DNA from: Actinomycetes bacterium | GTDB taxonomy: Bacteria > Actinomycetota > Acidimicrobiia > Acidimicrobiales > GCA-2861595 | NCBI GenBank assembly: GCA_023264975.1 | Contig: JAHFUS010000003.1 | Location: forward strand, 26,921 to 90,920 | Length of the DNA: 64,000 bases | Direction: 5' to 3' | Shown: positions 6,471 to 30,063 of the stretch, one piece after another | Layout: the number at the start of each line of letters is the position of its first letter | Numbering within the stretch: the stretch's first letter is position 1 | The notes under the pieces: model-generated | The model's input: only the letters and a program-made list of their open reading frames with translations | Database searches by the model: none | Told to the model about the DNA's origin: nothing | Position numbers and translations under genes: made by a program

Positions 6471-6497
6471 AGGCCGAGCGTAGGGGAGACTGCGGGA

Positions 6498-11264: not shown

Positions 11265-11282
11265 GCCCCCGAAGCCGGTCCC

Positions 11283-11319: not shown

Positions 11320-11328
11320 GAAAGGCGG

Positions 11329-12132: not shown

Positions 12133-12258
12133 CCCCCCCGTTCTCGTCGGCGTGGAGCGGACTTCGCGCCGTTGTACCGACAGGAACGGACCGGCTGCTC
12201 GCAGGACCGGCGTCGATCGGGCATGCTCTGGGGCATTCACGCTTCCGGAGGTCGCCAG

Positions 12259-13122: not shown

Positions 13123-13287
13123 ACCGACCGGGTCGCCGAGACTTCCGGGGGCGGCGGGCCGTCGGGTCGGCGAAACGCTGCGAGAAGGGTGACGACCTGC
13201 CGACCAGAATCACGGAACCGGACAGGAAGCTCGCAAAAGCGAGCGTAATTACTAGGAGAAGCTTGCGGGTGCGGCTACACTCGCCGA

Positions 13288-13695: not shown

Positions 13696-14516
13696 TGCCC
13701 CGCCGGGCATGCGCGATCGTGGCGCTCACGGTCTGCTGTGCGTTGGCAGCCGGCGCCTGTGGGTCGGGCAACGCAGCCACGACCACCACGGCGGCGACCG
13801 CCACGACCACGACTACAACCACGGTGGCCGACCCCGTGACGGGCGAACTCGTTGTGCTGGCCGCCTCGTCGCTCGTCGAACCGTTCGAGGAGCTGGGCCG
13901 GATGTTCGAGGCCGGGCACCCCGACGTGAAGGTGACCTTCAGCTTCGCCGGGTCCTCCGACCTGGCCCGCCAGATCGACGCCGGTGCGCCCGCCGACGTG
14001 TTCGCCAGCGCCGACGAGAAGACCATGGCGGCCGTGGTCGCCGCCGGGCAGGCCGCCGAGCCTGTGGTTGTGGCCCGCAACCGCCTGGCCGTCATCGTGG
14101 AGAAGGGCAACCCCAAGGGCGTCCGGACGCTGGCCGACCTGGCGAGGAGCGATGTCGTTCTTGTGCTTTGCGCAGCCGAGGTGCCGTGCGGCCGCCTGGC
14201 TGCGGCCGCCTTCCGGAAGGCCGGGGTGGCCGCCGAGCCGGCGTCGCTCGAAGCAAACGTGAAGGCCGTCGTGTCGAAGGTGACGCTGGGCGAGGCCGAT
14301 GCCGGCATCGTCTACCGCAGTGACGTGCAGGCGGCCCGCGACAAGGTTGAGGGCGTCGACGTGGTCGAAGGTGCCGACGCCGCCCTTCAGGCCGTGTACC
14401 CGGTGGCCCTCACCACGGCCGCCGCCAACCGGGTTGCAGCCAAGGCATGGGTGGACCTCGTCAGGTCAGCGGGCGGCCTGCGGGCGCTTGCGGCGGCGGG
14501 CTTCCTCGGGCCATGA
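13695..14516 (+). CDS. modA: Molybdate ABC transporter substrate-binding lipoprotein
   Basis: Signal plus lipobox (LAAGAC) and a Thr-rich linker. ModA-like core: LVVLAASSL...FSFAGSSDLARQI...DVFASAD...GIVYRSD. Confidence 0.85.
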   Translation: MPRRACAIVALTVCCALAAGACGSGNAATTTTAATATTTTTTTVADPVTGELVVLAASSLVEPFEELGRMFEAGHPDVKVTFSFAGSSDLARQIDAGAPADVFASADEKTMAAVVAAGQAAEPVVVARNRLAVIVEKGNPKGVRTLADLARSDVVLVLCAAEVPCGRLAAAAFRKAGVAAEPASLEANVKAVVSKVTLGEADAGIVYRSDVQAARDKVEGVDVVEGADAALQAVYPVALTTAAANRVAAKAWVDLVRSAGGLRALAAAGFLGP

Positions 14517-15304
14517 GCCGCCGGCCGGCGCTGTCGCCGGCGGTCGCCGTCCCTGCCGTTGCCGCCGGCGCCTTCCTCGCCCTGCCCCTCGCGGCCCTCG
14601 TGTGGCGGGCGCCGTGGGCCGCTCTATGGTCCGACCTCACCGATCCGGCCGCCCGCACGGCCCTGCGTCTCTCACTGGTCTGCTCACTGTGGGCCACCGT
14701 CCTGGCGGTGGGCCTGGGCCTGCCCCTGGCGTGGGCCCTGGCCCGGGTGCCGTTCCCGGGCCGGCGCCTGGTGCGCGCCTTGGTGCTCGTGCCCCTCGTG
14801 CTTCCGCCGGTGGTGGGCGGTGTCGCCCTGCTGCTGGCGCTCGGACGGCGGGGGGTGGTGGGCCGGTACCTCGACCAGTGGTTCTCCCTCAGACTGCCGT
14901 TCACCACGGCGGGGGCGGCCGTGGCCGAGGCCTTCGTGGCCATGCCCTTCCTGGTGCTCACCGCCGAGGCCGCCTTCCGCAGCGCCGACCGGCGCTACGA
15001 GGACGCCGCCCGCACCCTCGGCGCCGGCGGGTGGACGGTGTTCCGACGGGTCACGCTGCCCCTGACGTGGCCGGCGCTGGCCGCCGGCGGCCTGCTGGCG
15101 TGGGCGCGCGCCCTCGGCGAGTTCGGCGCCACCATCACCTTCGCCGGCAACGCTCCCGGTCGCACCACCACCATCCCCCTCCAGGTCTTCCTGCTGCTGG
15201 AGTCGGGCCGGCTCGGCTCCGCCCTGGCCCTCAGTCTGGTGCTCCTGGCCGTCTCGGTGACGGTGCTGGCCGTGCTGCGGGACCGGTGGCTGGGGGCCCT
15301 GTGA
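14513..15304 (+). CDS. modB: Molybdate ABC transporter permease
   Basis: ATGA overlap with modA. Multi-TM protein with an EAA-type loop (EDAARTLGAGGWTVFRRVTLP). Confidence 0.9.
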   Translation: MSRRPALSPAVAVPAVAAGAFLALPLAALVWRAPWAALWSDLTDPAARTALRLSLVCSLWATVLAVGLGLPLAWALARVPFPGRRLVRALVLVPLVLPPVVGGVALLLALGRRGVVGRYLDQWFSLRLPFTTAGAAVAEAFVAMPFLVLTAEAAFRSADRRYEDAARTLGAGGWTVFRRVTLPLTWPALAAGGLLAWARALGEFGATITFAGNAPGRTTTIPLQVFLLLESGRLGSALALSLVLLAVSVTVLAVLRDRWLGAL

Positions 15305-16365
15305 CCGCCTCCGACGGGCTCTCGGCCGAGGTCGAGGTCCGCCTCGGAGCGCTCGACCTGCGCGTCCGCTTGGCCGTGGCGCCGGGCGAGACGGTGGCCG
15401 TGCTCGGGCCCAACGGCGCCGGGAAGACCACTCTGCTGCGGGCCCTGGCCGGCCTCCACGATGTCGACTCCGGCACGGTCGTGCTCGACGGCGAGGTGCT
15501 GGAGGACACCGCCGGCGGTCGGCGGGTGCCCTGTGAGCAGCGTTCCGTCGGCATGGTGTTCCAGGCCAACCTGCTGTTCCCTCACATGTCCGCTCTCGAG
15601 AACGTGGCGTTCGGGCTGCGGGCGCGGGGCGTCCGCAAGGGCGAGGCGCGCCGGCGGGCGGGGGACTGGCTCGACCGGGTGGGGCTGGCTGCCCACGCCC
15701 AGGCCACGCCGGACCGGCTGTCCGGCGGCGAGGCCCAGCGTGTGGCCCTGGCCCGGGCGCTGGCCGGCGACCCTCGCCTCCTGCTGCTCGACGAGCCCCT
15801 GGCCGCCCTCGACGCCTCGGTCCGGGGCGCCATGCGGCGCGAACTCCGCACCCACCTCGCTGCTGCGCCCGGCGTCCGGGTGGTGGTGACGCACGATGCG
15901 GTGGATGCGGCTGCGCTGGCCGACCGCCTCGTGGTGCTCGAGGGCGGGCGGGTCACCCAGGAGGGAACGCTGGCCGAGCTCACCGCCCGCCCCCGGTCGC
16001 GGTACGTGGCCGACCTGGTGGGGGTGAACCTGTTCACGGGCCGGGCCGACGGCACGGCCGTCACCGTCACCGGCGGCTTCGTCCTCACCGTGGCGGAGCA
16101 GGCGTCGGGCGACGTGTTGGTGGCCGTGCCTCCCCGGGCTGTCACGCTCCATCACCGCCGGCCGGACGGGTCTCCCCGCAACGTCTGGGAGGCGTCGGCG
16201 GCGGCGGTCGAACATGAGGGCGACCGCGTCCGGGTGTCCCTGGCCGGCCCTGTCGCCATCGTGGCCGAGGTGACGGCGGCGGCGGCCGGCGAGCTGGCGC
16301 TGGAGGCGGGCGGCCCGGTGTGGGTGGCCGTGAAGGCCACCGAGATCGACGTCTTCCCCGCCTGA
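15301..16365 (+). CDS. modC: Molybdate ABC transporter ATPase with C-terminal TOBE-like domain
   Basis: GTGA overlap with modB. Walker A GPNGAGKT, signature LSGGEAQR, Walker B LLLLDEP. Confidence 0.9.
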   Translation: MTASDGLSAEVEVRLGALDLRVRLAVAPGETVAVLGPNGAGKTTLLRALAGLHDVDSGTVVLDGEVLEDTAGGRRVPCEQRSVGMVFQANLLFPHMSALENVAFGLRARGVRKGEARRRAGDWLDRVGLAAHAQATPDRLSGGEAQRVALARALAGDPRLLLLDEPLAALDASVRGAMRRELRTHLAAAPGVRVVVTHDAVDAAALADRLVVLEGGRVTQEGTLAELTARPRSRYVADLVGVNLFTGRADGTAVTVTGGFVLTVAEQASGDVLVAVPPRAVTLHHRRPDGSPRNVWEASAAAVEHEGDRVRVSLAGPVAIVAEVTAAAAGELALEAGGPVWVAVKATEIDVFPA

Positions 16366-16524: not shown

Positions 16525-17766
16525 GTGCGATCGTTCAAGACGGTCGCCCGCGGCTCGCGACCCTTCGGGGGCGCGACGGCGGGCGGCCCCAGACGGGCGC
16601 GCCGGTACGGCGTGCCGGCCGCCGCGGCTGCTGCCATGGCTGCCGCTCTCGTGTCCGTCGCCGGGAGCGGCGGCGACCCGGCGCAGCGGATCAGCGCCGG
16701 CGGCTCGGCACCGGGCGGCGCCACCGCTCAGATCGCCGCTGCTGCGGCTGCGCCGGCCGCCCCGGGCCCGCCCCGGGCCTTCACCACCACCCTCGGCGTG
16801 GGCACCGTCAACGGCCGCGCCCGCATCGAGCGCTCGCTCGGGTGCGCGGCGGGTGGTGATGCCGACTACTGGCACTTCTCGTCCGAGGCGCCGCTGCCCG
16901 CCGGCGTGATCACCGGACCCCAGTCGACGCTCGCAGGCGACGCCCGCCTGTTCGCCGACCTGCACTCGCCCTTCCACGCCGTGCGGGCAACACCGGAGCC
17001 GGTGGCGGGGCCGGCCAACGAGTCGGCCTTCCTGCTCCCCGACGCCAGCCGGGTGGCCCTCTCCAACCAGCGGGGCACTGTGAAGCTCAAAATCGGCTCG
17101 GGTACCTGCGCCCGTGACGGCCAGACGCTCGACTTCGACGGCACCACGGCCAGGACGAACGAGAAGCCCGGCACGTGGAGCATCGTCTCGGCCTCCGGCA
17201 GCTACCGCTCGGCCGCCGGTTCGGGCGACTTCGACCTCGAGGCCGACGTGTCGCCCGGCGCCGACAACCCCTGGAAGCTCGTCCTGCGGGGCGGCGTCGG
17301 CGTGCTCCAGCCCGCCCTCCAGGTCACCGTGGCGGAGACGTACTGGGGCCGCGACGGCGTCGACTACGCCAAGCGCCAGGTGGCCGTCGCCTACGACGTC
17401 ACCAACACAGGCCCCGGCGACTCCTTCGCCACCTTCCTCCAGACGGCGTCGTCACCCACCCCCGGCGCATCATTGGTCGCCATCATCATCAACGGCGACA
17501 ACCTCCTCATCGACGGCAACACGCCGGTCGGCACGTTCCCCCGGTCCCTCGGCGACCTCGCCTCGGGCGAGACCACCCGGGTCACGCTCAAGTGGCAACT
17601 GCCCCTGCCCTCGGGCAGCCCGCCGTGCGGTCTGGTGATCCTCAACTGCCGGTTCGACACCACCCTCGGCTTCCGGCTGCCGGACGCCCTCGACGTGGCG
17701 GCATCGCCCGACCCGTCGTTCACGCTCCATGTCAATGCCCCCAACCTCCCGCCGCCTGTCTCATGA
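16525..17766 (+). CDS. Exported hypothetical protein (413 aa), first gene of the giant-protein operon
   Basis: GTG at 16525 is in frame with track ORF 16438-17766. The N-terminus RRARRYGVPAAAAAAMAAALVSVAGS looks like a (possibly Tat-type) signal, followed by an Ala/Gly linker. The C-terminal half (VAVAYDVTNTGPGDS ... TRVTLKWQLPLP) resembles CARDB-like Ig folds. Its stop overlaps the next start (ATGA). Confidence 0.6.
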   Translation: MRSFKTVARGSRPFGGATAGGPRRARRYGVPAAAAAAMAAALVSVAGSGGDPAQRISAGGSAPGGATAQIAAAAAAPAAPGPPRAFTTTLGVGTVNGRARIERSLGCAAGGDADYWHFSSEAPLPAGVITGPQSTLAGDARLFADLHSPFHAVRATPEPVAGPANESAFLLPDASRVALSNQRGTVKLKIGSGTCARDGQTLDFDGTTARTNEKPGTWSIVSASGSYRSAAGSGDFDLEADVSPGADNPWKLVLRGGVGVLQPALQVTVAETYWGRDGVDYAKRQVAVAYDVTNTGPGDSFATFLQTASSPTPGASLVAIIINGDNLLIDGNTPVGTFPRSLGDLASGETTRVTLKWQLPLPSGSPPCGLVILNCRFDTTLGFRLPDALDVAASPDPSFTLHVNAPNLPPPVS

Positions 17767-20700
17767 GGACTTCCATGAACGCCCTGCGCACCTTCGGCCC
17801 GATGCGCCGGCCGTGGCTGCTCTTCATCGCCGGCGTGCTCCTGATCGGCGCCGTCCTCGGCAGCCGGTCAACGGTCGACATCTCGGGTGCGGAGAAGACG
17901 GCCGTGCCCTTCCCGTCGCTCGTCTACGGCATCGAGGCAGAGTCCAACGGGCACCAAGCCTCGATCCTCAACCTCGGCATCGGCTACCTCAACACGCTCC
18001 AGGCGCCCTTGCCGGTGGACGTCGACGGCGACCTGCTGCCCGACGTCACCGTCGCTGTGAACCTGGTCGACACCCAGGGCCTGCACAACCCGCCCCAGCC
18101 GGGCGACATCATCCGGCCCAACGTCGAGATCAACCGCTTCCCCCTCGAGCTGGGCACCACCCTGCTCGGCCGCCCCAGCCCGCCGCTGAAGATCAAGGTG
18201 GTCTTCAAGATCTACGACCTCCAGGGCGAGACCGACACCATGACGGCCAAGTTCGGTTACGACACCGGGCCCGGCGGGTCCATCCCCGGCTACTTCCAGG
18301 CGACTCTCGACGGCATCACCGACTTCTTCAGTCCGGTCACCGCCACCATTTCCACCAAGGGCGACATCATCACGCAGAGCTCGGCCCCCCTCTGGTACCA
18401 GGGCCCGCTCACCGTGATCGGCGGCTTCCAGCAGGGCGCCTTCAAGGCCGACCTCGGCCTCGGGTACGCCCCGTTCCCCGACAAGGTGGCCGTCACCTAC
18501 CGCCACGACGACGCCGGTGACCACATCGACTACACGCACGCAGCCGAGGGAGAGGTGGACCTGCTCACCAAGGCGGTGGTGGAGGACAAGGGCGAGCGAA
18601 TCGACGTGGCCGCAAACGTCAGCCGCCTGCCCCGCACCCTCGGCCTCGACCTGCTCAAGGCGGCCCAGGGCGGCGCCGTGCACTTCGACACCACGGCCGA
18701 CGGGCGCCTCCCCGACGCCGACGTGCGGTTCAAGGGGCCGCTGCTGGGCGACGTGTTCGACGCCCACCTGGCCATCGAGGACCTGCCCACGTCCATGGAT
18801 GCCAAGTGGTCCCTGCCCAAGGACGGACCGATCAACGCGATCTTCGACTCCTCGGGCCAAGGCATAGGGGCCATCGAGGCGGAGATCCAGAACAGGAACG
18901 GGGCGCCCACCGGCCTGCCCCCGTTCCTGTTCGCCGAGAAGCAAATCGCAGCGGCCCAGCTCAACACCGCCACCGACGCGTTGCGCCTCGGCGCGCGCCT
19001 CGAGCGCATCCGCCACGCGGAGGTGGCGGCCACGCCGGCCGGAAACGTCGACGCCACCATCAACATCGGTGACGGCGAGCTGCCGCTCCAGCTGGCCGGC
19101 TTCGTCGACCTCCGCAGCAAGGGTGGACCGCTGATCGACGCCTCGTCCACCTTCTCGCCACTGCCCGGCACCATCGGCGTGTCCCTGAAGCCGGCGGGTG
19201 ACAACCAGAGGACCGACCCGCTCAAGTTGGTGTACTCGGCCAGCGAGGCGGTGGATGTGGACGCGAGGGTGCTCGTGCGCACCAAGGACGCCACGTCCGC
19301 CACGTGCGGCGCCTCGGGCGTGATCTGCGGCGATCTGCGGATGCGCCACATCCCGACGCGCATCGAGGCCCGTATCGGCGGGTTCACGAACGCCGAGGGC
19401 AAGCAGGAGACCCGCATCGAGACCGACACCGTCGGCCCCGGCCACGTCGACGTGTTCGCCGACGTGAAGGTGGGCCCCGACGTGGTCAACGGTGTCCCCG
19501 CCCAGCTGGCGGGCAAGCCGCTGGTCGCCCGCCTGGAGATGCTGGGCCTGGCCAGGAACGCCCGGGTGCGCACCATCGAGGGCCAGGACGACACGCTCCA
19601 GCGCACCGAGTTCCACTCGTGCGCCTTCGACTATGCCGCCGACGCCTGCCCCGCCGGCACACAGGGCGACCGCATCGGCGCTCTCCAGTTCGGGGTGGCC
19701 AACTTTCTGCCCACGGCCCGGCCGGCCGACCTGCCGCCCGCCTACGCGGCGACCCCGAACTTCGCCACCATCACCGCTCGCGGGCGCAGCAACGGCACGT
19801 CGGTGGACTTCGAAGCCACCGGCCGGGTGAGCGACATCCGCGAGCTCACCTACGTGAACCAGGGGGCGTTCGGGTACCGCAGCGACATCGGGGGCGGCGG
19901 CGACCTGGCCACCCTCGTCGACGTCGACAACATCGCCTTCGGCGCCGGCGGCCCCGGCTCGGACCTGTTCGACGTCACCGGCAACGTGCTCATCCACCCG
20001 CTGCCCCAGAGGATGTCCTTCTGCCTGAACGCTTCCGGCCAGGCCATCGTGGCGCCGCCCTCGTCGATCACCGCCCCGTGCCAGGACAAGAACCCGTTCT
20101 CCGCGGCGGCCAACCGGCCGTCGCTGACCAAGTCGCCGATGTCTGTCGCATACGACGGGTCCAGGGGCGACGGCAGCGCGCAGGAGTTCGACGTCGATGT
20201 CGACGCCGAACTGCTGGCCCACAACGGCGCCGGCACCGACGACGACCGTCGCGTGCGCGGCACCCTCGACATCGACCACATCCCGGCCACCATCCATGCC
20301 CACGTCCTCGACCCGAAGGACCAGGCGGCAGGCGGGCCGCTCAAGGTCCTGGTGGACGCACCCACCCTCGGCCCGCAATTGACGGTCTTCGCCAAGGCGA
20401 GCCTGCTCGACGGTGACCTGCAGTGCGAGGACCCCCGTGTCCCCAAGCGCATCGACAGCGACACCACCCAGGCGTCCGTGTGCGCCCAGGGCCGGATCAA
20501 CAACGTGCCCAACCGGATGACGCTCGCGTACGACGCCGACGCCGCGACCGACAACTTCGTGCTCGACGGCACCGGCGAGAAGCAACTCAGCTTCACCGAC
20601 CTCAAGGTCGCGGCCGTCACCCGCGACGAGCCGACGGCCGACGACCCGCCCGGCACGGCCGCCCGCGCCCAGGTGCTGGTGGCCACCGGCGAGATCCTCG

Positions 20701-23700
20701 GCCTGCCCAAGCGGGTCGAGGGCACGCTCAAGACGCCCGCCCCCGGCCGGCCCGACGATCCCGTGCTGATCGACCTCACCGGCACGCCCCTCCTGGTCGA
20801 CCAGATCAACGCATCCGTCCGCAACTTCATCGCCCCCGACCCCATCCCCGACATGCCTGCGCAACGCCAGGGCCTGGCCGACCCCAAGGCCATCGGTGGC
20901 GACGGCAAGCCGGCCGGGGACTGGGCCTCGTTCATCCAGCGGGGCGACGCCTTCAAGGCCGACGTGCACGTCAGTTCCATCAAGCGGGTCGGCTTCAAGA
21001 ACCAGGTCGACGCCAACGGCAAGGCCCTCGACACCAGCGTGGTGAGCGTGGACTTCGGAAAGGACAAGGTCGTCCGCGGCTACGTCGACATCGACAAGGA
21101 CGGCACCGACCGCCTCATCGGCGACGTAACCATCGAGGACATCCCGGCCGGAATCCAGGTGTGCGTCCGGCCGCCCACCACCAAGAACATCACGCCGGCC
21201 GCCGGCACCGCGACCTTCTGCGACAACACTCCCGCCCCGGTGGCGGCACGGGCCAAGACCGGCGCCTTCGAGGCCCGCATGTCCTCCGCCGTCGGCGCCC
21301 AACTCGACGTCGACGCCTTCGTGCGCAGCGCCAAGGGGGGCGGCGCCGACATCCTCTCCGCCCGCGTCGACATCGACAACATCCCCAACGTGGTGCGTGG
21401 CACCTTCGGCGACGGCAAGGTCGACGTCGGCGGCTTCACCCTCGCGGGTGTGCCCGACGGCATCGACCGCATCTACGCCAACGCGGCGAGCTTCGACCTG
21501 TCCGACGACCTCAACCGATCGGACGACGGAGACGGCTGGACGCCGGCCACCCGTCCCTACAGCCCCCGCTTCGTCACCAGGACGCCGTTCCCGACCCCGT
21601 TCCCGGCCGGCCAGCACGTGGCCGTGCGGGCCGACGACGCCGACTTCGAGGTGCGGGCCCGCATCGGGGCGGTCGAGCCGAGCGTGGAGCCCGCATCCGA
21701 CCTGCACCGCATCCAGCTGTCGGACACGCCGTGCGGCAAGCCCGTCGGGGTGGACTACGGGTCCGGGGCACCCGACTACGGCCCGCGTCCCGACTTCCCG
21801 TTCCTGCCGGACGACGGTTCCAAGTACACATGCATCCGGGGTGACTTCGAGCCGGTGGGCCCGACCGAGGTCGACCCCCTCGACCTGTCGGTGATCATCG
21901 ACAAGGGCGGCAAGCGGCTGTCGCTGGAGAAGGGCCTCCTCGACGACATTCCCGAGTTCTTCCAGGTCAACGTGGCCGACGCCAACCCGCTTCAGAACCA
22001 GGACGACCGCCGCCTCCGGCCGCACTGCATCGGCCTGGGTCGTACCCAGCCGGCCAACTGCGTGGCCCCCCTGGTGCGCCTGGACACACCGGGCAACGCC
22101 AGGCTGAGCGGCATCGTGCAGTACGGCGCCCTGGCCGACCTGGGCCGCCTGGGAACGGTGAGACCTCGTGAGGCGTTGCCGGTGGACGTCGACAGCGCCG
22201 GCAACATCGCCTTCGCCGGCAACGAGATCCGTGCCCGCATCGGTTCCTTCGGAGCCAGCACAGCCGCCCGCGCCGCCTTCCGCATCCCGATCCCGGCCTC
22301 GTTCACCATCGACCAGGTCCAGAGCTGGTCGATGAGCAACGTCAGCGGCAAGCCGAACTACCTCGACGCCAGCGACCTGCATTTCCGCTACGCGGCCCGC
22401 AACCCCGACGGCTCGTCGATCGGCGTACTGCTCAAGCTGAGCGCCATGATCCACTCGTCCGCCGACGGCACCCAGATCCTGCTGTCGGACGACGACCCGA
22501 GCCAGGGCGTGCAGATCCCGGGCGACCTCGGGGTCGAGATGTTCACCCGCAACCACAACGGCAACGGCCGGAACTTCCTCCAGATCGACGGCCGGTCCAC
22601 TGCGCCCGACCTCGACCTGCGGGCCCGGCTCCTCGGCACCGGTGGCAGCCCCATCGGCCGCCTCGACGCCCAGGTCCGCAACGTGCCGCCGGCGGCCACC
22701 GCCTACCCGGCGACCAACGCGCCGCTGACCGCCTATGGCGAGCCCTCGTTCCGCATCCGGGCAGAGACGCTGGGCGAGGGCAAGGAGCCCCCGGACCCGT
22801 CGGGTGCGGATAGTGCCAGCGGAGGCGAGCCGCCCAAGGAGAAGGAGTGCTCGCCGCTCCTCTGCATCCTCACCCAGGTGCGGCTCAAGAGCGTGAACGT
22901 GCAGTTCGACTTCAAGCCCGGCACGTCGCCCACGTACGCCCGTCTGCTGGAGGCGGTCATCCGCACCGACGGCACCAAGAACGGCGTGGAGGTCCGGGGC
23001 TTCTCGGTCATCGACAACGACGTCGACAACGACGGCGTGATCGACCAGAACATCGCCTCGCCCTTCCTGGCCGGCGCCCAGCTGGACGTGGACCCGATCA
23101 ATCTGTTCGTCCACGCCGGCATCCCTTTGCTCGCCAGCCTCGACTTCATTCTGCTGTCCGACCTCGACGCCGCCGCCAGCGTGGGCGGCAACTTCAAGAA
23201 CGGCACGATCTGGAGCACGGGCCAGTACGACCCGGGCGGGCTCGTGCCCCAGCTCGAGGGAGCCGGCTCCACCAACTTCAGCCTGAAGCAGAACCTGCTC
23301 AAGATGACGGTGTCCAACAACGGGCCGGACGGCTCGTTCTCCCAGATCGGCCCGATCGACTTCAACGTGAAGGTGATGCACGGCGAGGCCTGGGGCCTGT
23401 TCGTGAAGCTCCTCGGCGTCGACTGGGTGCCGCCCGGCTCGTCGCTGCGTCTGCCGTTCATCGAGTGCAGCACCCTCGGCGCCCTCAACAGCGAGGTCGT
23501 CAAGGTTCCGGAGCCGCTCATCGACGGCGACGGCGACGGCAGCAGGAGCGTTGTCCCCTGGCCGTTCTATTCCGTGCTCCACCCGCCCGGGAAGATCGTC
23601 TACAGCGGCCTGCTGGGCGGGGCGCTCACCCTGGTGGGCGACCTGGCCGGGCCGTTCTTCTGCGTGCTCGACACCGATCAGGACCTGATCGACGACGGGG

Positions 23701-26700
23701 CCAAGCCCCACCCGGCGGACCCACTCGGTATCGGCATCACCCAGAGCAAGGTGCCCGAGGCGCGCGTCGACGGGTCGCAGTTGGTGCAGTCGGCGGACGA
23801 CACGGGCCCCGACCTCCTGCCCGACATCACGGTCGGCAACTCCACGCCGGCAATGTGCGGGACGAAGAGCTACAACAACTTCACCATCCCGTCCGGCGTC
23901 ACCCTGAACGTGGCCACGGCCGCCGACGCCACGAAGATCGACGGCGTCGACGCCTGCCCCGCAGGGGCGGAAGGCACGGTCGAGATCGTCGCCACCGGGA
24001 ACGTCACGGTGAACGGCGTCCTCGAGGCCGGCAACCGCATGATCCTCACCAATGCCTCCGGCAACGGCGGTGGCGGCCACGGCGTGCCCCCGTTCCTCAT
24101 TTTCCCGGAGGAGGGCCGCGGCGGCAACGGTGGCACCAGCGGCTCCGGCGGGCCGGCTTACGGCGACCGCTTCGGCGACTTCGACATCGAGGTCGGCCGG
24201 GCAGGGAGCGCCACGACGACGCCCGCCGGTAACGGCGGCGACGCCGGCAAGGGCGGCGGCAGCATCAAGATCATCGCCGACAAGCTCAGCGTGGGCCCGT
24301 CCGGCGCCGTGCGGGCCGATGGCGGCGGTGGGTCATCCAAGGGCACCAGCCCGGCGGATTGCTTCGACCCCGACGTCGACGGCAACGGCCCCGACACGGG
24401 CCACCCGAACATCGGCTTCGCCGGCGGTGGCGGCGGTGCGGGTGGCGGCATCGTGCTGCACCTGGCCGAGTACGCGGTGGCCGCGGGCGGCTCCGTCAGC
24501 GTCAACGGTGGGCCGGGCGGCGCCGGCTCCCGCGGCGGTGGCGGCGGTGGCGGTGGCGGCAACGTCAAGCTGGACACGGCCCTCGTGTCCGGCGCGGTTC
24601 CCACCGCCACCGGGGGCGCCGGCGGGGCCGACTTGTGCGGTGGGAACAACACGGACGACCCCGGGACGGCGGGCGGCGGCGGCGACACCTACGGGAACCC
24701 GCCGGTGAACGTGGCGCCCAAGAGCCGGGTCGACATCCGGAAGCTGTCGGACGCCGACCTCAAGAACTTCAGCTTCTGGAACACCACGGCCGGCGACAAG
24801 TCGCTGGTCGTGCCCTACCAGGCCGCCGCCGAGGTCGTCGGCGCAAGCGACGACTTCGACGTCGTGCTGTGCGCCACCCCGCGGACGACGGCGATCGACC
24901 TACCCACCGACAAGTCGCTGTCCGAGGTCCTCATGCCCGCCCAGCCGGGCAACGTGAGCCTCGACAATCCGTGCGGCACGTTCGGCATCGGGACCATCGT
25001 GGGGAACCCTGGCCTGGGCCAGCCCGGCGTGCAGGCGGTGAAACACTTCAGCGGCCGACGCACCACGTCGACCTTCTCCGTGGCCTCGATGGCCGAGTCC
25101 TATTACGGCCTCTACACCATGCTGTGGAAGACCACGGCCGATGGCAACGACTGCTTCAACCCATTCGACCAGGGCTACGACCCCTTCAACCCCACAAGCG
25201 GCCGGCTGTTCGACGTCGCCCGCTGCACGGCAGAGCCTGCGCCCACCAGCCCCGACCTCAGCATCGGGATCGACAACGCGGCGCCCAACATCCAGAACCT
25301 CGTCGTAAACGGCGTCACCGTGCGGGGCGGCGACGGCAGCCCCGTGGCCGGCGCCCAGCCCGTGTCGTCCAGCGCCGGCACCATCGCCATCAGCTGGAAC
25401 GACACCGACAATCTGTCCAAGGTGGTCGGCCGAGAGTGCACCGGCGCCAACGGCGCGATCGGGTTCCGGAACTGCGTGAGCGGCCAGACGGTCGCCATGA
25501 CGAACGGTGACGGCACCAAGACGGTCGCCGTGAGGCTCATCGACGGAGCGGGGAACACGGACACCTTCACGGCCACCGTGCTGGTGGACACCACCGTGCC
25601 CGCCTCGTCTGGCCAGGTCATGACGGCCACGGCCACTCAGCTTCAGAACGGCTGGTTCCTCAGCTCCCCGGGCTTCCGCCTGTTCGGCTACAACGACGGC
25701 GCCGGCACGGGTGCGCCGGCGGTGCCGTGGGAGTACCAGTTCGACGACGGCGACCTCAAGCCGTGCAACGACCTCGACTGCACGATCGGCGACGGCCCCG
25801 GCGAGGACCTGCCGGGCATCGGGCGCCACCGGCTGCGCTGGACGGCGATCGACAAGGTGGGCAACAAGTTCACCGCCGACGACAACCCGAACACCCCGGG
25901 CGTCGACGGCCGTCAGCAGCTGGCCGTGAAGGTCGACGGGGCCAAGCCGATCTCGGCCCTTCTCAGCGTGCCGGCCACTCCCAACGGGGCGAACGGCTGG
26001 TACTCAGGGGCCACCTGGATCACCTTCGGTGCCTTCGACCAGCCCGGCGCATCCGGGTTCAAGAAGGCGGTCGACGACACCACCCAGATCGGCGGCGTGG
26101 CGTTCCAGATCACCCACGAGGGCGTCACCACGCCGGGCACGTTCGACGTGGCCAACCCCTCGCCCGTCCGACTCGAACCGGGCACCTCCACGGTGTGCTG
26201 GCAGGCCAAGGACCAGGCCGGCAACGTCGACCTGTCGATGGCCGACCAGTGCCGCACCTTCAAGGTCGACGAGGCCGACCCCGTCACCAGCCTGCCCACC
26301 ACGGCCAACACGCCCGACGGGGTCGCCGGGTGGTACACGACCAAGCCGGTCGTCAACCCCACCGTCGCCGACGGGGGCACCCTCGGCTCCGGGGTCGGCA
26401 CCGACACGGTGAACCTGTGCACCCAGAACCCGCTGATCGCCGCGCCCGCTCCGACGGGCACGTGCATCTCGATCGACGGGGCGCCGTTCATCCCGGTCGA
26501 CCACAACGCCGACAAGTACCTGGTGACGCTGGGAGAGGGGCTGCACGAAATGCGGGCCTTCTCCACCGACGCCGCCGGCCGGCGCTCGGCCATCACCACG
26601 AGGCTCTACCAGGTGGACCTGTCCAACCCGGTTGCGGTGGCCCGCACCATCATGGCGAGGGCGTCGGCCGGGAAGTGGTGGCGTGAGGTGCCCACGGTTG

Positions 26701-27326
26701 TGCTGCGCGCCGCCGACGGGGACCAGCACGGCTCCGGCATCGTCCGCACCCGCTACCAGTTCAGCGGCACGGCCGCGGTCGCCCCGTGCACGGCCGCACC
26801 CTGCACGTACACGGGACCGTTCACCGTGCCCGAGGGCGTCTACCGGGTCACCTACTGGGCCGAGGACGTGGCCGGCAGAGTCCAGGCCCCGCAGACGCTG
26901 AAGGTTGCCGTCGACACCACGCCGCCCGTGCCCAAGGCCACCACCCCCAACCCGGCGCTGTGGCTGCGCAGCAAGCTGGGCCTGCCCCTCACCTCGCCCA
27001 CCGTCGACCTGCGCTGGACGCTGCAGGAGAATCTCTCCGGGGTGGCGTCAGCCGACAACACGCCGCCCGACAGGGCGAACGTGAAGGTCGTGGTCTACGA
27101 CGTGACGGGTTTCCCGGTGCGAACGCTGAACGCCGGCGACTTCGTGGTGACGCCGGGCCAGACCCTGGCCGGCAAGGCGGTGTGGGACGGCAAGGGTGCC
27201 AACCTCACGTCGCTGCTGCCGGTCGGCACGTACTACTACCGGGTGGTGGCCACCGACGCAGCCGGCAACGTGGCCATGAGCGGCGAGTCCACCAAGCTCG
27301 TCATCGCCGTCAGCCTGCTGCTTTAG
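17763..27326 (+). CDS. Giant (3187 aa) N-terminally anchored or secreted surface protein: long beta-rich region, Gly-rich beta-helix-like segment, C-terminal Ig-like array ending in a FlgD-Ig-like domain
   Basis: ATG at 17763 is in frame with track ORF 17175-27326. The N-terminus is MRTSMNALRTFGPMRRPWLLFIAGVLLIGAVLGS (TM or signal). A [DN]-[ILV]-P motif recurs through about 18600-22710. A Gly-rich block lies at about 24050-24700. Four or five modules carry (N)GW(Y/F)...D.AGN (OmpL47/chitobiase-C-like Ig), and the final module is WDGKGANLTSLLPVGTYYYRVVATDAAGNV (FlgD-Ig-like). GC3 is uniformly high over 9.5 kb. Confidence 0.85.
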   Translation: MRTSMNALRTFGPMRRPWLLFIAGVLLIGAVLGSRSTVDISGAEKTAVPFPSLVYGIEAESNGHQASILNLGIGYLNTLQAPLPVDVDGDLLPDVTVAVNLVDTQGLHNPPQPGDIIRPNVEINRFPLELGTTLLGRPSPPLKIKVVFKIYDLQGETDTMTAKFGYDTGPGGSIPGYFQATLDGITDFFSPVTATISTKGDIITQSSAPLWYQGPLTVIGGFQQGAFKADLGLGYAPFPDKVAVTYRHDDAGDHIDYTHAAEGEVDLLTKAVVEDKGERIDVAANVSRLPRTLGLDLLKAAQGGAVHFDTTADGRLPDADVRFKGPLLGDVFDAHLAIEDLPTSMDAKWSLPKDGPINAIFDSSGQGIGAIEAEIQNRNGAPTGLPPFLFAEKQIAAAQLNTATDALRLGARLERIRHAEVAATPAGNVDATINIGDGELPLQLAGFVDLRSKGGPLIDASSTFSPLPGTIGVSLKPAGDNQRTDPLKLVYSASEAVDVDARVLVRTKDATSATCGASGVICGDLRMRHIPTRIEARIGGFTNAEGKQETRIETDTVGPGHVDVFADVKVGPDVVNGVPAQLAGKPLVARLEMLGLARNARVRTIEGQDDTLQRTEFHSCAFDYAADACPAGTQGDRIGALQFGVANFLPTARPADLPPAYAATPNFATITARGRSNGTSVDFEATGRVSDIRELTYVNQGAFGYRSDIGGGGDLATLVDVDNIAFGAGGPGSDLFDVTGNVLIHPLPQRMSFCLNASGQAIVAPPSSITAPCQDKNPFSAAANRPSLTKSPMSVAYDGSRGDGSAQEFDVDVDAELLAHNGAGTDDDRRVRGTLDIDHIPATIHAHVLDPKDQAAGGPLKVLVDAPTLGPQLTVFAKASLLDGDLQCEDPRVPKRIDSDTTQASVCAQGRINNVPNRMTLAYDADAATDNFVLDGTGEKQLSFTDLKVAAVTRDEPTADDPPGTAARAQVLVATGEILGLPKRVEGTLKTPAPGRPDDPVLIDLTGTPLLVDQINASVRNFIAPDPIPDMPAQRQGLADPKAIGGDGKPAGDWASFIQRGDAFKADVHVSSIKRVGFKNQVDANGKALDTSVVSVDFGKDKVVRGYVDIDKDGTDRLIGDVTIEDIPAGIQVCVRPPTTKNITPAAGTATFCDNTPAPVAARAKTGAFEARMSSAVGAQLDVDAFVRSAKGGGADILSARVDIDNIPNVVRGTFGDGKVDVGGFTLAGVPDGIDRIYANAASFDLSDDLNRSDDGDGWTPATRPYSPRFVTRTPFPTPFPAGQHVAVRADDADFEVRARIGAVEPSVEPASDLHRIQLSDTPCGKPVGVDYGSGAPDYGPRPDFPFLPDDGSKYTCIRGDFEPVGPTEVDPLDLSVIIDKGGKRLSLEKGLLDDIPEFFQVNVADANPLQNQDDRRLRPHCIGLGRTQPANCVAPLVRLDTPGNARLSGIVQYGALADLGRLGTVRPREALPVDVDSAGNIAFAGNEIRARIGSFGASTAARAAFRIPIPASFTIDQVQSWSMSNVSGKPNYLDASDLHFRYAARNPDGSSIGVLLKLSAMIHSSADGTQILLSDDDPSQGVQIPGDLGVEMFTRNHNGNGRNFLQIDGRSTAPDLDLRARLLGTGGSPIGRLDAQVRNVPPAATAYPATNAPLTAYGEPSFRIRAETLGEGKEPPDPSGADSASGGEPPKEKECSPLLCILTQVRLKSVNVQFDFKPGTSPTYARLLEAVIRTDGTKNGVEVRGFSVIDNDVDNDGVIDQNIASPFLAGAQLDVDPINLFVHAGIPLLASLDFILLSDLDAAASVGGNFKNGTIWSTGQYDPGGLVPQLEGAGSTNFSLKQNLLKMTVSNNGPDGSFSQIGPIDFNVKVMHGEAWGLFVKLLGVDWVPPGSSLRLPFIECSTLGALNSEVVKVPEPLIDGDGDGSRSVVPWPFYSVLHPPGKIVYSGLLGGALTLVGDLAGPFFCVLDTDQDLIDDGAKPHPADPLGIGITQSKVPEARVDGSQLVQSADDTGPDLLPDITVGNSTPAMCGTKSYNNFTIPSGVTLNVATAADATKIDGVDACPAGAEGTVEIVATGNVTVNGVLEAGNRMILTNASGNGGGGHGVPPFLIFPEEGRGGNGGTSGSGGPAYGDRFGDFDIEVGRAGSATTTPAGNGGDAGKGGGSIKIIADKLSVGPSGAVRADGGGGSSKGTSPADCFDPDVDGNGPDTGHPNIGFAGGGGGAGGGIVLHLAEYAVAAGGSVSVNGGPGGAGSRGGGGGGGGGNVKLDTALVSGAVPTATGGAGGADLCGGNNTDDPGTAGGGGDTYGNPPVNVAPKSRVDIRKLSDADLKNFSFWNTTAGDKSLVVPYQAAAEVVGASDDFDVVLCATPRTTAIDLPTDKSLSEVLMPAQPGNVSLDNPCGTFGIGTIVGNPGLGQPGVQAVKHFSGRRTTSTFSVASMAESYYGLYTMLWKTTADGNDCFNPFDQGYDPFNPTSGRLFDVARCTAEPAPTSPDLSIGIDNAAPNIQNLVVNGVTVRGGDGSPVAGAQPVSSSAGTIAISWNDTDNLSKVVGRECTGANGAIGFRNCVSGQTVAMTNGDGTKTVAVRLIDGAGNTDTFTATVLVDTTVPASSGQVMTATATQLQNGWFLSSPGFRLFGYNDGAGTGAPAVPWEYQFDDGDLKPCNDLDCTIGDGPGEDLPGIGRHRLRWTAIDKVGNKFTADDNPNTPGVDGRQQLAVKVDGAKPISALLSVPATPNGANGWYSGATWITFGAFDQPGASGFKKAVDDTTQIGGVAFQITHEGVTTPGTFDVANPSPVRLEPGTSTVCWQAKDQAGNVDLSMADQCRTFKVDEADPVTSLPTTANTPDGVAGWYTTKPVVNPTVADGGTLGSGVGTDTVNLCTQNPLIAAPAPTGTCISIDGAPFIPVDHNADKYLVTLGEGLHEMRAFSTDAAGRRSAITTRLYQVDLSNPVAVARTIMARASAGKWWREVPTVVLRAADGDQHGSGIVRTRYQFSGTAAVAPCTAAPCTYTGPFTVPEGVYRVTYWAEDVAGRVQAPQTLKVAVDTTPPVPKATTPNPALWLRSKLGLPLTSPTVDLRWTLQENLSGVASADNTPPDRANVKVVVYDVTGFPVRTLNAGDFVVTPGQTLAGKAVWDGKGANLTSLLPVGTYYYRVVATDAAGNVAMSGESTKLVIAVSLLL

Positions 27327-27336
27327 GTTCTTCGTC

Positions 27337-28053
27337 GTGAACAAGCGAACCGTTGCACTCGCGCTCGTCGCCGTCTTCGCCGTCACCGCCATCGGCGCCG
27401 TCGTCGTCGCCATCACCGGCGGCGACGGCGGCGACGTGGTGGCCGGACCGGAGGCGACGACGACGACCACGGCCGCCCTCAACGACGAGGCCCAGGAGCT
27501 GGTGGACCGGTTGGTGGCGGCCCGCAAGCGCCCGCTGCACCTGACGTATGCGGGCGGCCTGGCCGCCGCCCCGAAGACGGGCGCGCTGACCATCGAGATC
27601 TGGTGGGACGGCGAGCTGACCCGCCAGGACATCAGGACCGAGGCGCCGGCCGGAAAGCAGCAGCAGTCCTCGTTCGCGCTCCCGAGCGGGAACGTCTCCT
27701 GCGTGAAAGGCGCCGACGGCGCATGGGCATGCCAGCGAGCCGCCTCGGTGGCCACAGCCGCGGGCAAGCCGGCGAGCATCATCGACTCGCTGGTGGCGCA
27801 GCTCAACGGCAAGCCGGTCACGGTGGCCAAGGCCAAGGTCGGCGACACCGACGCCGACTGCTACACGCTGGACCCGACGACCGACGATGTGGTGTGCCTG
27901 CGCGAGGACGGGGTGCCCGTGAAGTTCACACTTTCGGGCTCGGAGCTGGTGGCGACCGGCGTCGCCACGGACGTGGACGCCGGCGACTTCAAACCGCCGG
28001 CCGAGCCGACCGAGCTCCCGGCCACACCCACCACACCGACCTCGGGGGGATGA
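27337..28053 (+). CDS. Membrane-anchored exported protein (238 aa), third gene of the giant-protein operon
   Basis: GTG lies 10 nt after the giant's stop. TM VALALVAVFAVTAIGAVVVAI is followed by a Thr-rich linker and a globular part with two Cys pairs. That part is vaguely reminiscent of LolA/RseB-like beta-half-barrels, which is a weak inference. Confidence 0.6.
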   Translation: MNKRTVALALVAVFAVTAIGAVVVAITGGDGGDVVAGPEATTTTTAALNDEAQELVDRLVAARKRPLHLTYAGGLAAAPKTGALTIEIWWDGELTRQDIRTEAPAGKQQQSSFALPSGNVSCVKGADGAWACQRAASVATAAGKPASIIDSLVAQLNGKPVTVAKAKVGDTDADCYTLDPTTDDVVCLREDGVPVKFTLSGSELVATGVATDVDAGDFKPPAEPTELPATPTTPTSGG

Positions 28054-28167: not shown

Positions 28168-30063
28168 CTACGGGCGGGCGGCCTCGGCTCGGGCAGTGAA
28201 CAAGCGGGCCACTGCGTCGCCGTCCTCGGCGGCGCCGTCGGGTGGCTCGACGGGAGCGGCGCTCCCTGGCTGCGGCGCCGACACGGGGCCATCGGCGCCC
28301 CGGGGGGGAACCGGCACGGGTGCCGGGCCGGCGACGGCCATCTTGGCCGCCAGCTTGGTGCGCAGTGCCGCAATTTGGCGGGTGAACTCGTCCTGGCGGG
28401 GAGGAGGCGGGGCGGCGGCCATGGCACGGGTGTGGGCCTCGGGGCGCAGGTAGCCACGGAGGTCGGGCAGGTCGGTGCGGGGCGTGTCTCGGGTGATGAG
28501 CCCCTCGAAGGTCGCGGCCGCCGCCTCCCGTGCCGAAAGGGGGGCGGTGCCCGGGGCGAAGAGCTTGCGGACGGTGCGGGGGATGGAGGCGTGGTCGTAG
28601 AGGGTGTCGTCCCAGCGCTGGTCGATGCGGGGCGAAATGATCACCGTCGGGACGCGCGGGCCGAGCACGTTGAACCGGAACCGGGAGTCGGGTTGCTCGA
28701 CGAACCAGCCGATCAAGCGGGGCATCCATGACCGGCGGGGCCGTCCGAACGGCTCGGGCGCGGCCGCGTCGGTGGGCGGCAGGACGTGGTCGTAGAGGCC
28801 GCCGTGCTCGTCGTAGGTGATGACCAGCACGGTCTTGTCGAACACCTCGGGGTTGACCCGGAGGGCCTCGTAGACCTCGATGATCAGGTTCTCGCCCCGC
28901 TGGAAGTCCCACAGGCCGCCGTCCTCGGGCCCGCTGTTGTCGTCGTTGTTGCCCGGGTGCTGGCTATTCGAGAGCTTGCCGTCGTGGCACGGCTCCAGGA
29001 ACGAATAGGCGGGAAGCCGGTCGTGCTCCACGTCGTCGGCGAAGTCCTGCAGGCGCCGCCAGTTGCCGATCTGGGCGTCGTCCGACAGCCACCCGAACGC
29101 CATCACCTGCGCCAGCGAGCCGGGATCGCGGTAGATCGCCCACGATTTCCCCGCCTCGTGCAGCCGGTTGAAGACCGTGGGGTTCCGGTAGAAGCCGACC
29201 TCGATGTCGACCGTGCCGTCGGATGTGCCGGCGTGGGCGAAGTTGCGGTTCGGCCACGTGGCACCGGGCACCGAGCAGTGCCAACGGGTGCAGACGGCGA
29301 ACGACTTGGCCAGCGTGGCCAGCGCCGGCAGCTGCTCCATCGGCTTCATGCAGCGCATGATCTGGGAGGCCTGGTCCGTGGCCACCGGGGGCGGCTTGGC
29401 GACCTTCCTCCGCTTGCGCAGGACGGCCAGGGCGCCGGCGGCGCCGACGACCGCGGCGTTGGCCAGCATGCGCAGCGGGAACCCGAAGTGGCGGCCGAGC
29501 AGTGCCGAGAGGCCACCGACCGCCGCCACCACCCCCGCCGGCGCCACGAAGGCGCCGGTCCATGCGTCGACGGGGAGCGCCTGACGCCGCATGTAGGCGA
29601 ACGTCACCGCGCCGTACCCGACGAGCAGCACGCCCGCCGCGCCGGCGACGAGCGGGCCGGTCGCCGGCAGGGCGAGCAGGCCGGCAACGGCCGCGGCCGC
29701 GGCGCCCACCACCACGAAGATGCGGTCGAAGTGGATCACGGGCAGCCCCGACTCCCGGCCGGCGATCTTGCGCGCGTACGAGGCGATGAAGCCCTCCATG
29801 GTCGGTGCGCCCAGCGGTCGGAGGCCGAGTTGCTCGATTACGCTGGCGTGGGAGTGCGGCGGGTCGAACCTGAGGTCGGGCGAGCCGTCGTCGCTGACGT
29901 TGACCCGTCCCTTGGAGGCATCCGTCGGGTCGACCGGGTTGGAGAAGGCGGGGTCGTCGAGGCGCACACCCGGGTACTTCAGGTCGTCGTAGAGGAAGCC
30001 GAGCAGATGGTCGAAGGAGCGGTTCTCGAACATCAGGACCACGACGTGCTCGATGTCGGTCAC
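28168..30063 (-). CDS. Phosphoesterase-family enzyme (phospholipase C / AcpA acid phosphatase family) interrupted by a four-TM insertion
   Basis: Family motifs are in order: VVVLMFENRSFDHLLG, PPHSH, GATWPNRNFAHAGTS, ITYDEHGGLYDHV. About 125 aa with four hydrophobic helices lie between the second and third motifs (aa about 105-230, nt about 29374-29751). There is no N-terminal signal. Confidence 0.85.
   Translation of the reverse strand: MTDIEHVVVLMFENRSFDHLLGFLYDDLKYPGVRLDDPAFSNPVDPTDASKGRVNVSDDGSPDLRFDPPHSHASVIEQLGLRPLGAPTMEGFIASYARKIAGRESGLPVIHFDRIFVVVGAAAAAVAGLLALPATGPLVAGAAGVLLVGYGAVTFAYMRRQALPVDAWTGAFVAPAGVVAAVGGLSALLGRHFGFPLRMLANAAVVGAAGALAVLRKRRKVAKPPPVATDQASQIMRCMKPMEQLPALATLAKSFAVCTRWHCSVPGATWPNRNFAHAGTSDGTVDIEVGFYRNPTVFNRLHEAGKSWAIYRDPGSLAQVMAFGWLSDDAQIGNWRRLQDFADDVEHDRLPAYSFLEPCHDGKLSNSQHPGNNDDNSGPEDGGLWDFQRGENLIIEVYEALRVNPEVFDKTVLVITYDEHGGLYDHVLPPTDAAAPEPFGRPRRSWMPRLIGWFVEQPDSRFRFNVLGPRVPTVIISPRIDQRWDDTLYDHASIPRTVRKLFAPGTAPLSAREAAAATFEGLITRDTPRTDLPDLRGYLRPEAHTRAMAAAPPPPRQDEFTRQIAALRTKLAAKMAVAGPAPVPVPPRGADGPVSAPQPGSAAPVEPPDGAAEDGDAVARLFTARAEAARP

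Follow-up and report, generated by a model that had tools for sequence, protein, structure and literature searches.

Two kinds of very long bacterial protein offer the closest described parallels to the gene cassette considered here. Fibrillar and giant non-fimbrial adhesins, such as those of the SiiE type with their BIg repeats (the class is surveyed in PMC9210967), are very large exported proteins that have no enzymatic motif and possess a stalk of tandem beta modules. AsmA-like proteins (TamB, YhdP, and YdbH with YnbE and YdbL) begin with an N-terminal hydrophobic helix, continue into a long beta region made of strand blocks and loops, and have small partners encoded in adjacent genes (PMC10345924). 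The window analysed here, a stretch of 64,000 nucleotides (nt) from a soil bacterium of the order Acidimicrobiales (assembly GCA_023264975.1, contig JAHFUS010000003.1, positions 26,921 to 90,920), contains at 16525-28053 a cassette of three closely spaced open reading frames (ORFs) on the plus strand, referred to below as g1, the giant gene and g3. As judged from predicted models, the giant gene product is a probable surface protein with an architecture of about 1,900 amino acids (aa) that is recognised by neither domain nor structure databases. There is roughly an even chance that the cassette specifies a very long, disulfide-stabilised, adhesin-like surface fibre on a Gram-positive-type cell, together with two clade-specific accessory proteins.

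The giant protein shares with fibrillar adhesins an export signal and a stalk of tandemly repeated domains, which in this case are cryptic modules followed by immunoglobulin (Ig)-like repeats. The Ig-like domains themselves are also a common feature, those of the giant being of the Big_13, OmpL47-type, HYR and FlgD_ig kinds. However, two thirds of its length is occupied by a beta-hairpin meander for which neither Pfam nor the PDB offers a relative, the repeats are cryptic and of ancient origin, not near-identical, it has no sortase, type I secretion system or autotransporter signal, and it is accompanied by two dedicated small partner genes. The likeness to AsmA-like proteins lies in a helix-poor, antiparallel, amphipathic beta region that follows a hydrophobic helix, and in the small partner genes encoded alongside. 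However, there is no similarity to AsmA-like proteins at the level of sequence, profile or Foldseek comparison, the beta region is about 1.5 times as long as the whole of TamB (1,259 aa), a beta-helix and Ig-like domains, 1,250 aa in all, follow it, some members of the family have cleavable signal peptides, and the host is a member of the Acidimicrobiales in which the cassette includes no gene for an outer-membrane partner.

Architecture of the giant protein

AlphaFold2 was run on two tiles of the giant (aa 1-1200 and 1151-2350) using 22 homologues, and gave a predicted local distance difference test score (pLDDT) of 81.4 and a predicted TM-score (pTM) of 0.64 for the first tile, and values of 76.5 and 0.62 for the second. 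In the models aa 52-1932 form 107 antiparallel strands with a median length of 9 aa, 30 of them joined by tight turns, so that 53% of this region is predicted to be strand and 4% helix. The strands are amphipathic, with one face composed to 68% of V/I/L/F/M/A and the opposite face rich in D and R. The first part of this region is a conserved N-terminal beta domain (aa 52-215; 17916-18407, plus strand, as are all features of the cassette), which is supported by invariant columns in the alignments and by the model of the first tile. Few stretches of the protein are better conserved (42-45% identity to distant members), and it includes a dense invariant run containing the acidic motif PVDVDGDLLPDV. 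The antiparallel beta-hairpin meander proper, with about 100 amphipathic strands in the AlphaFold2 models, occupies aa 216-1930 (18408-23552).

A first-pass annotation, made by a model from the letters of the sequence, had described these N-terminal two thirds as beta-looking and non-repetitive. The former is borne out by the predicted strand content, and the latter is wrong. Self-comparison of the giant by BLASTP revealed no repeats, the modules emerging only by profile-profile comparison, in which hhalign analysis of sub-alignments detected cryptic modules of about 115-135 aa over aa ~216-1300 with probabilities of 82-97%. For example, aa 288-402 match 529-674, 912-1022 and 1164-1245 (82-96%), and a register shift of about 51 aa is also seen in the self-comparison. 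Many of the modules are marked by a two-residue hairpin turn of the form 'h-x-(D/N/H)-(I/L/V)-P', and the longer loops of the meander hold local Cys pairs. In homologues of about 4,000 aa the block equivalent to aa ~370-950 is tandemly duplicated, and because a duplication of ~580 aa is tolerated, as it would not be in a closed shell, the architecture appears to be open-ended and extensible.

Searches for relatives of this region gave uniformly negative results. Pfam, applied to the whole giant and to six overlapping 600-aa tiles at E values up to 10, yielded nothing before aa ~2,580, and NCBIfam, PHROGs and PADLOC gave no match in the first ~2,500 residues. When the PDB was searched by sequence, whether the query was the giant alone or the full-length family profile, the only matches were to the C-terminal Ig/FlgD domains and to single-chain variable fragment chains, the latter of which we regard as artefacts of Gly-rich linkers. 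When both AlphaFold2 tiles were compared with the PDB by Foldseek there was no match at E <= 1e-3; the best were to the ApoB100 beta-belt, TcdB2-TccC3, TonB-dependent receptors, CymA, LptD and BamA, with TM-scores <= 0.16 and probabilities <= 0.25, and the resemblance would appear to signify a single-layer antiparallel meander and not homology. The ApoB100 beta-belt (PDB 9e9r, 9coo) was the top match of both tiles and is, like the giant, a very long single-chain antiparallel amphipathic sheet, but the match lacks significance (E values of 7.6e-3 and 6.9e-2, TM-scores <= 0.15) and constitutes a likeness of sheet type, with no evidence of homology or of lipid binding. TamB, VPS13 and ATG2 were all absent from the best 50 Foldseek matches of either tile, hhalign comparison of the family profile with Escherichia coli TamB and RhsA gave probabilities of 0.2% and 0.08% respectively, and Pfam, even at E values up to 10, showed no trace of Chorein_N, AsmA, TamB, RHS_repeat or YD. 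Taken with the exhaustive profile search described below, these results uphold the earlier opinion that no characterised family can be named for the N-terminal two thirds, and neither the hidden Markov model (HMM) scans nor the Foldseek comparison of the tiles produced a clear match to an adhesin or S-layer family for the N-terminal ~1900 aa.

The distal third of the protein is made up of several further segments. A short helical linker (aa ~1950-2010; 23610-23792), seen as DSSP helices at positions 802-859 of the second tile, is followed by a Gly-rich segment (aa ~2030-2330; 23850-24752) which, from its composition and its model, is made up of short strands in a putative beta-helix-like arrangement. 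Many of the Gly and Cys residues of this segment are invariant across the family. A Foldseek search of BFVD with the second tile produced matches, with a probability of 1.0 over ~360-440 columns, to Gly-rich 'collagen-like' proteins of giant viruses and phages, and these matches appear to cover the Gly-rich part of the tile. The conservation profile places the least conserved stretch of the giant directly afterwards (aa ~2331-2560, 24753-25442, or more broadly aa ~2300-2600), where identity is 27-31% compared to 33-46% elsewhere; it contains Cys pairs and is a candidate specificity region. Beyond it are four or five Ig-like domains of ~120 aa, of the Big_13/OmpL47 type (25443-27032), which were recognised as self-repeats by hhalign over aa 2561-3080 with probabilities of 98.5-99.3%, and the protein ends with a FlgD-Ig/HYR-like domain and a short hydrophobic tail (27033-27323; HYR E 4.9e-4, FlgD structure 3osv E 0.066). 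The Big_13 family (PF19077) scored 33.1 bits on the whole protein and 43.8 bits on a tile (cut-off 27), and barrel_OmpL47 (NF047446) scored 54.3 bits (cut-off 40). Matches in Pfam and NCBIfam were limited to Big_13, OmpL47-type and HYR Ig-like domains, placed by whole-protein scans beyond aa ~2,970, and a FlgD_ig domain was found in the homologues P0108 and P0135. The full-length family profile also matched, at E 5e-4, a BIg domain of PDB 2yn3, the Salmonella giant adhesin SiiE. The Gly-rich segment and the C-terminal Ig-like modules, both of which had been proposed at the outset, are therefore real on the evidence of composition, AlphaFold2, hhalign, Pfam and NCBIfam.

There is only one hydrophobic segment in the giant (located at aa 18-37, and mapped to 17811-17867 as aa ~17-35), which could be a membrane anchor or the h-region of a signal peptide. 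After it come the residues ISGAEKTA and then VPFP, at which a conserved, mature-looking start begins. In most cases among 83 family members an Ala comes before this start, '(V/I/T)P(V/F)P..Y.IE'. In a divergent clade of the family a canonical AxA site is found 0-3 residues before the conserved start and directly past the h-region (e.g. ANA before GPVIPVP, ARA before EPVPVP). In the clade to which the giant itself belongs, termed here the window clade, 12-14 residues intervene between the h-region and the conserved start, with a possible site between ISGA and EK. On these sequence patterns cleavage of the N-terminal segment is plausible and it may be a signal peptide instead of an anchor. Since the divergent members carry canonical AxA sites by the conserved start, a membrane-embedded N-terminus is not characteristic of the family as a whole, which weakens the original suggestion of an anchor whilst leaving that of a single hydrophobic segment intact.

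The 36 Cys residues of the giant form 18 near-neighbour pairs which, together with the invariant Cys pairs of g1 and g3, fit the formation of extracytoplasmic disulfides. A motif scan for Walker A, HExxH and CxxCH found none of them in the giant, and its C-terminus (...KLVIAVSLLL) has no LPXTG or other sorting motif near the end, in agreement with the first-pass annotation, which had seen neither a sorting signal nor a nucleotide-binding or hydrolase motif; two LPXT(A/S)-like strings, at aa 2844 and 3074, are internal. The giant thus lacks the C-terminal LPXTG, transmembrane (TM) segment and basic tail by which sortase-anchored wall proteins are recognised. There is a sortase system 16 kb from the giant gene (43017-46464, plus strand), which is not used by the giant. 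Its first ORF (43017-44285) encodes a 422-aa secreted protein that has no Pfam match and carries a C-terminal LPRTG with a TM segment and then a basic tail behind it; directly 3' is a gene for a sortase (44399-45055; PF04203, E 6e-30), and after that an overlapping ORF of 528 aa.

The three-gene cassette and its family

The g1 gene extends from a GTG at 16525 to 17766 (413 aa), the giant frame is open from an ATG at 17763 to 27326 (3,187 aa), and g3 extends from a GTG at 27337, which is 10 nt past the giant stop, to 28053 (238 aa). The GC content at third codon positions is 0.89-0.92 in all three, which matches real genes in a window of 71% GC, where values along the sequence are 69-79%. It was originally considered that g1 and the giant gene were joined by a 4-nt ATGA overlap (17763-17766). 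However, GAGGA at 17765-17769 precedes an ATG at 17775, a database protein 100% identical to the giant (P0001) has a length of 3,183 aa, and the spacing between g1 and the giant gene in homologous loci is 9-12 nt, and for these reasons the giant probably starts at ATG 17775 (3,183 aa). The ATGA overlap would then be incidental and the two genes would be separated by an 8-nt spacer, although tight packing holds either way, and the shared direction of the genes and the 10-nt gap before g3 stand as first described. A scan of the cassette for promoters and terminators was uninformative in such high-GC DNA.

A word-indexed search yielded 57 giant homologues of 1,850-4,370 aa. The few of these that carry a taxon label are from metagenome-assembled genomes of the Acidimicrobiales/Acidimicrobiia and from the cultured species Actinospongicola halichondriae, and the taxon-labelled members of the family are all Acidimicrobiia or other Actinomycetota. 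The homologues are named only as 'hypothetical' or as 'OmpL47-type beta-barrel domain-containing', which refers to the C-terminal domain, and cluster look-ups for relatives of the giant returned names that were all 'hypothetical protein'. An exhaustive HMM search of 1.84 billion representative proteins, using a profile of aa 200-1300, found 203 proteins at E <= 1e-3; the 150 matches listed were all collinear with the profile, either full-length or as fragments, and are read as belonging to the same family. The search found the giant's own family and no bridge to a larger one. The family thus appears, from these 203 proteins and the collinearity of the 150 listed, to be small and closed. When 185,579 species genomes were scanned for a motif, 14 loci were recovered, and literature searches found no description of the family. 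One cultured carrier, A. halichondriae Hal317, has a complete genome (CP171622), in which the locus is at 391.5-419.6 kb.

The window clade was sampled as 16 locus records, two of which represent one Actinospongicola locus, and its giants are 33-77% identical in the N-terminal 1,000 aa. A homologue of g1 (E 1e-41 to 1e-172) is found immediately 5' of the giant gene in all 14 distinct loci having upstream DNA, and a homologue of g3 adjoins the pair in each of the 10 loci in which the DNA reaches far enough. The position of g3 is mostly downstream, with one exception in which it is upstream of g1 (L007) and another in which there is one copy on each side (L004). Two g3 paralogues are present in L002, L004, L008, L009, L013 and L016, where they are in tandem downstream or flank the pair formed by g1 and the giant gene; in L002 (20180-22194) a 166-aa multi-TM ORF lies between the two copies. 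Clustering of all the ORFs of the window-clade loci revealed nothing in common besides the giant, g1 and g3, and the surrounding neighbourhoods are unrelated between loci. The giant, g1 and g3 are a real, clade-specific unit, as the initial proposal of a three-gene operon had implied, and within the window's clade the flanking genes are conserved along with the giant. In the divergent clade, whose members match the profile at E values of about 1e-75 to 1e-110, the overall architecture of the giant is the same as in the window clade. A LuxR-type regulator of ~930-940 aa (AAA_16 plus GerE) adjoins the giant gene in two of the three divergent-clade loci that were tested (L020, 15334-18159; L022, 1532-4330).

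The g1 product is a secreted protein of 413 aa with an N-terminal signal peptide and with four Cys residues that are invariant in its orthologues, which likewise have signal peptides and end in a conserved 'AP.LPPP(L/VS)' tail at the very C-terminus. It had been described as an exported protein with a CARDB-like C-terminal half. The first element of this description holds, but the CARDB match (PF07705; aa 281-360, 17365-17604) is below threshold, with 14.4 bits against a cut-off of 22.7 and E 0.045, yet it recurs as weak sub-threshold matches in 7 of 13 orthologues (best E 0.015). A profile search of the PDB with g1 gave no match.

The g3 product consists of a TM segment (aa 5-27; 27349-27417), a Thr-rich linker and a domain of ~175 aa (aa 48-222; 27478-28002), and its orthologues have the same layout. 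Residues H68 and R96 are invariant in an alignment of 22 members, as are two pairs of Cys and the terminal motif 'F.PPA'. Translation and alignment are thus in accord with its initial description as membrane-anchored, with a Thr-rich linker and two Cys pairs. Both partners have Pro-rich C-terminal motifs (g1, 17742-17766; g3, 27990-28010), and the modules of the giant repeatedly use '(I/L/V)P' hairpin turns. A vague resemblance of g3 to the LolA/RseB fold had also been suggested. The size of g3 and the order of its landmarks (N-terminal helix, 'HAxY', 'xWxxxP/R.D' and terminal 'F.PP') are similar to those of LolA, LolB and RseB, and LolA ends in a similar motif, 'F.F.PP'. However, g3 is TM-anchored and has two conserved Cys pairs of the disulfide type, and the resemblance has no statistical support. 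A Pfam scan of the 22 members gave no LolA-clan match at E < 0.1, a profile search of the PDB gave no match, and hhalign gave a probability of 0.8% with E. coli LolA, which is not significant although the first helix, 'HAxY' and 'xWxxxP' fall in the expected register, and nothing with RseB. A repeat search of a database of 5.8e9 proteins with the g3 profile returned family members only and no known family. The idea that g3 is LolA-like is thus an unconfirmed lead from the alignment.

Fibre, scaffold or conduit

The surface-fibre reading accommodates these observations as follows. The giant would be exported by the Sec pathway by virtue of its N-terminal hydrophobic segment, which would then be either cleaved off or retained as an anchor. 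Its aa 52-1930 would form a continuous, open-ended beta-hairpin structure, built from ancient modules of ~120 aa, that would act as a rigid stalk of some tens of nanometres and project the distal parts across the wall and out past it. The distal third, with its Gly-rich beta-helix-like segment, its Cys-containing variable region, its Ig-like array and its FlgD-Ig-like end, would be the adhesive or ligand-binding end. Of the partners, g3 would most plausibly tether the fibre to the membrane through the latter's conserved N-terminal domain, and g1, which is secreted and would be co-translated from just upstream, would most plausibly serve as an assembly factor or a subunit. That the products of the cassette are exported is indicated by the hydrophobic N-terminal signals of the giant and g1, the TM anchor of g3 and the paired Cys residues. 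The distal third is typical of surface adhesins, because it has Big_13, OmpL47-type, HYR and FlgD_ig domains, the match to 2yn3, the Gly-rich, fibre-like viral matches and the least conserved stretch of the protein. An accessory as opposed to a housekeeping function is indicated by the rarity of the family (203 proteins in 1.84e9 and 14 loci in 185,579 genomes) and by the unrelated neighbourhoods. Of the two readings offered in the first-pass annotation, an envelope-spanning fibril or adhesin and an AsmA/TamB-style bridge, the former is the better, as an interpretation of the architecture.

A number of points weigh against the fibre. Conservation is near uniform (33-46%) along the 3,187 residues, which is atypical for a fibrillar adhesin; many fibrillar adhesins evolve fast and contain highly similar tandem repeats, and in this the giant is unlike them. 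No known adhesive domain or ligand was found in the Pfam and NCBIfam scans of the giant. If the signal peptide is cleaved the retention of the giant at the surface is unexplained, there being no sortase signal, and in the predicted models a stalk with a packed core would not be distinguishable from an open hydrophobic groove. The roles attributed to g1 and g3 are guesses, and the divergent clade manages without both, neither being present within 6 kb of the giant gene in any of the three loci tested.

The uniform full-length conservation and the many invariant residues would be better suited to a structural assembly than to a fast-evolving adhesin, and this raises the question of whether the cassette encodes a structural component of the envelope, such as a strut across the wall or a scaffold of the S-layer-like or sheath type, in which g1 would be a co-polymerising subunit and g3 a membrane tether. 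The conservation and translational coupling of g1, with its invariant Pro-rich C-terminal tail, and the rigidity of the predicted architecture (pTM 0.62-0.64 for tiles of 1,200 aa) are consistent with such a scaffold. However, a general envelope layer would hardly be expected to have so rare and patchy a distribution with one copy per locus, Pfam and NCBIfam revealed no SLH domain or other wall-binding module, the divergent clade has neither g1 nor g3, and there is no sign of self-assembly. A scaffold is accordingly judged unlikely, at perhaps one chance in five.

A rather less probable proposal is that hydrophobic molecules are carried or conducted by the meander, in the manner of AsmA, TamB and YhdP or of an Lpt bridge. 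Its hydrophobic face would form the lining of a groove that leads outward from the membrane, with g3, possibly LolA-like, loading or receiving the cargo. The general layout resembles that of AsmA-like proteins, in which an N-terminal hydrophobic helix precedes a very long all-beta region of repeated blocks (PMC10345924). The strands of the meander are strictly amphipathic and the best Foldseek matches, insignificant as they are, were to open single-layer sheets (the ApoB100 lipid belt, LptD and large barrels) and not to sandwich domains. For g3, the weak LolA alignment keeps to the expected register, and the terminal motif is 'F.PPA'. Against this the giant fails the tests of sequence and fold for an AsmA/TamB bridge: there was no Chorein_N, AsmA or TamB signal, the TamB comparison by hhalign was null and no bridge-like lipid-transfer protein, be it TamB, VPS13 or ATG2, was among the best 50 Foldseek matches. 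Homology of the giant to AsmA-like proteins was rejected on these grounds, and the AsmA/TamB-style membership suggested in the first-pass annotation is not supported. Canonical cleavable signal peptides in divergent members mean that a membrane-embedded N-terminus is not conserved, there is no outer-membrane partner gene and only g1 and g3 are conserved as neighbours. Members of the host class, the Acidimicrobiia, are as far as is known monoderm, which also argues against a conduit of this type. The ~1,250 residues that come after the meander, as beta-helix and Ig-like domains, would suit a distal binding end better than a docking end, and the family is rare, with g3 missing in the divergent clade and its link to LolA statistically null. 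The mechanism as such retains some weight, although it is improbable.

A related and marginally more doubtful idea is that the ~1,880-residue meander is a new fold class, a single-chain amphipathic beta sheet the hydrophobic face of which binds or channels lipids or some other hydrophobic material at or across an envelope without an outer membrane, with the tethered, LolA-like g3 as its partner. On the predicted strand count such a sheet may be tens of nanometres long, the upper limit, with all 107 strands side by side, being ~50 nm. It would be, with the same slender likelihood, a functional analogue, of independent origin in the Actinomycetota, of the AsmA and Lpt bridges or the ApoB lipid belt.

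The possibility that the giant is a beta-sheet cocoon of the Rhs/YD type or like a Tc toxin, encapsulating and delivering a cargo, has next to nothing in its favour, for although the hairpin-repeat sheet is comparable in size to the TcB-TcC shell and TcdB2-TccC3 (6suq) was the third Foldseek match of the first tile (insignificant at E 0.022), the TM-score to 6suq is 0.07, Pfam detects no RHS_repeat or YD, Rhs core or toxin domain, the C-terminus is a conserved Ig-like array and not a polymorphic toxin, and a closed shell was rejected given the null RhsA comparison and a 580-aa tandem duplication in the long variants that is hard to fit into one.

Surroundings of the cassette and implications

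The cassette is preceded in the window by genes for a molybdate-type ABC transporter (SBP_bac_11, 13263-14516; ABC_tran plus TOBE, 14299-16365) and followed by a convergent phosphoesterase gene on the minus strand (28168-30063). Several other features of the window were observed in passing. At 4887-8399 there is a near-complete overlap on opposite strands between a GH77 4-alpha-glucanotransferase frame (plus) and a flavin amine-oxidase-like Rossmann domain (minus), both recognised by Pfam, and since long ORFs overlap here almost wholly, at least one of the two frames must outrun its real gene. Genes for a radical S-adenosylmethionine (SAM) protein with an N-terminal zinc ribbon of the HMPTM type, a class I SAM methyltransferase and a small cupredoxin stand in a row at 9690-12636 (plus strand) and may be a modification or cofactor cluster. 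At 38000-42475 (plus strand) the GC content reaches 0.79 and the AT skew is strongly negative; two genes of this region, one with a T2SSF domain (41327-42211) and one with DUF4244 (42215-42475), suggest a Tad/Flp-type pilus cluster, and the ORF at 38319-39044 has no Pfam match.

The Acidimicrobiia are common in soils and oceans and have been little studied in culture. The giant protein is a concrete candidate for long surface structures in this class in the absence of sortase signals, and g1 and g3 represent two new families of small proteins that travel with it. Experimental testing is feasible since there is a cultured carrier, Hal317, with a complete genome. Should the meander prove to be a hydrophobic groove, bridge-type lipid handling would be extended to the monoderm Actinomycetota; should it prove to be a stalk, a new stalk module would be added to the catalogue of fibrillar surface proteins.

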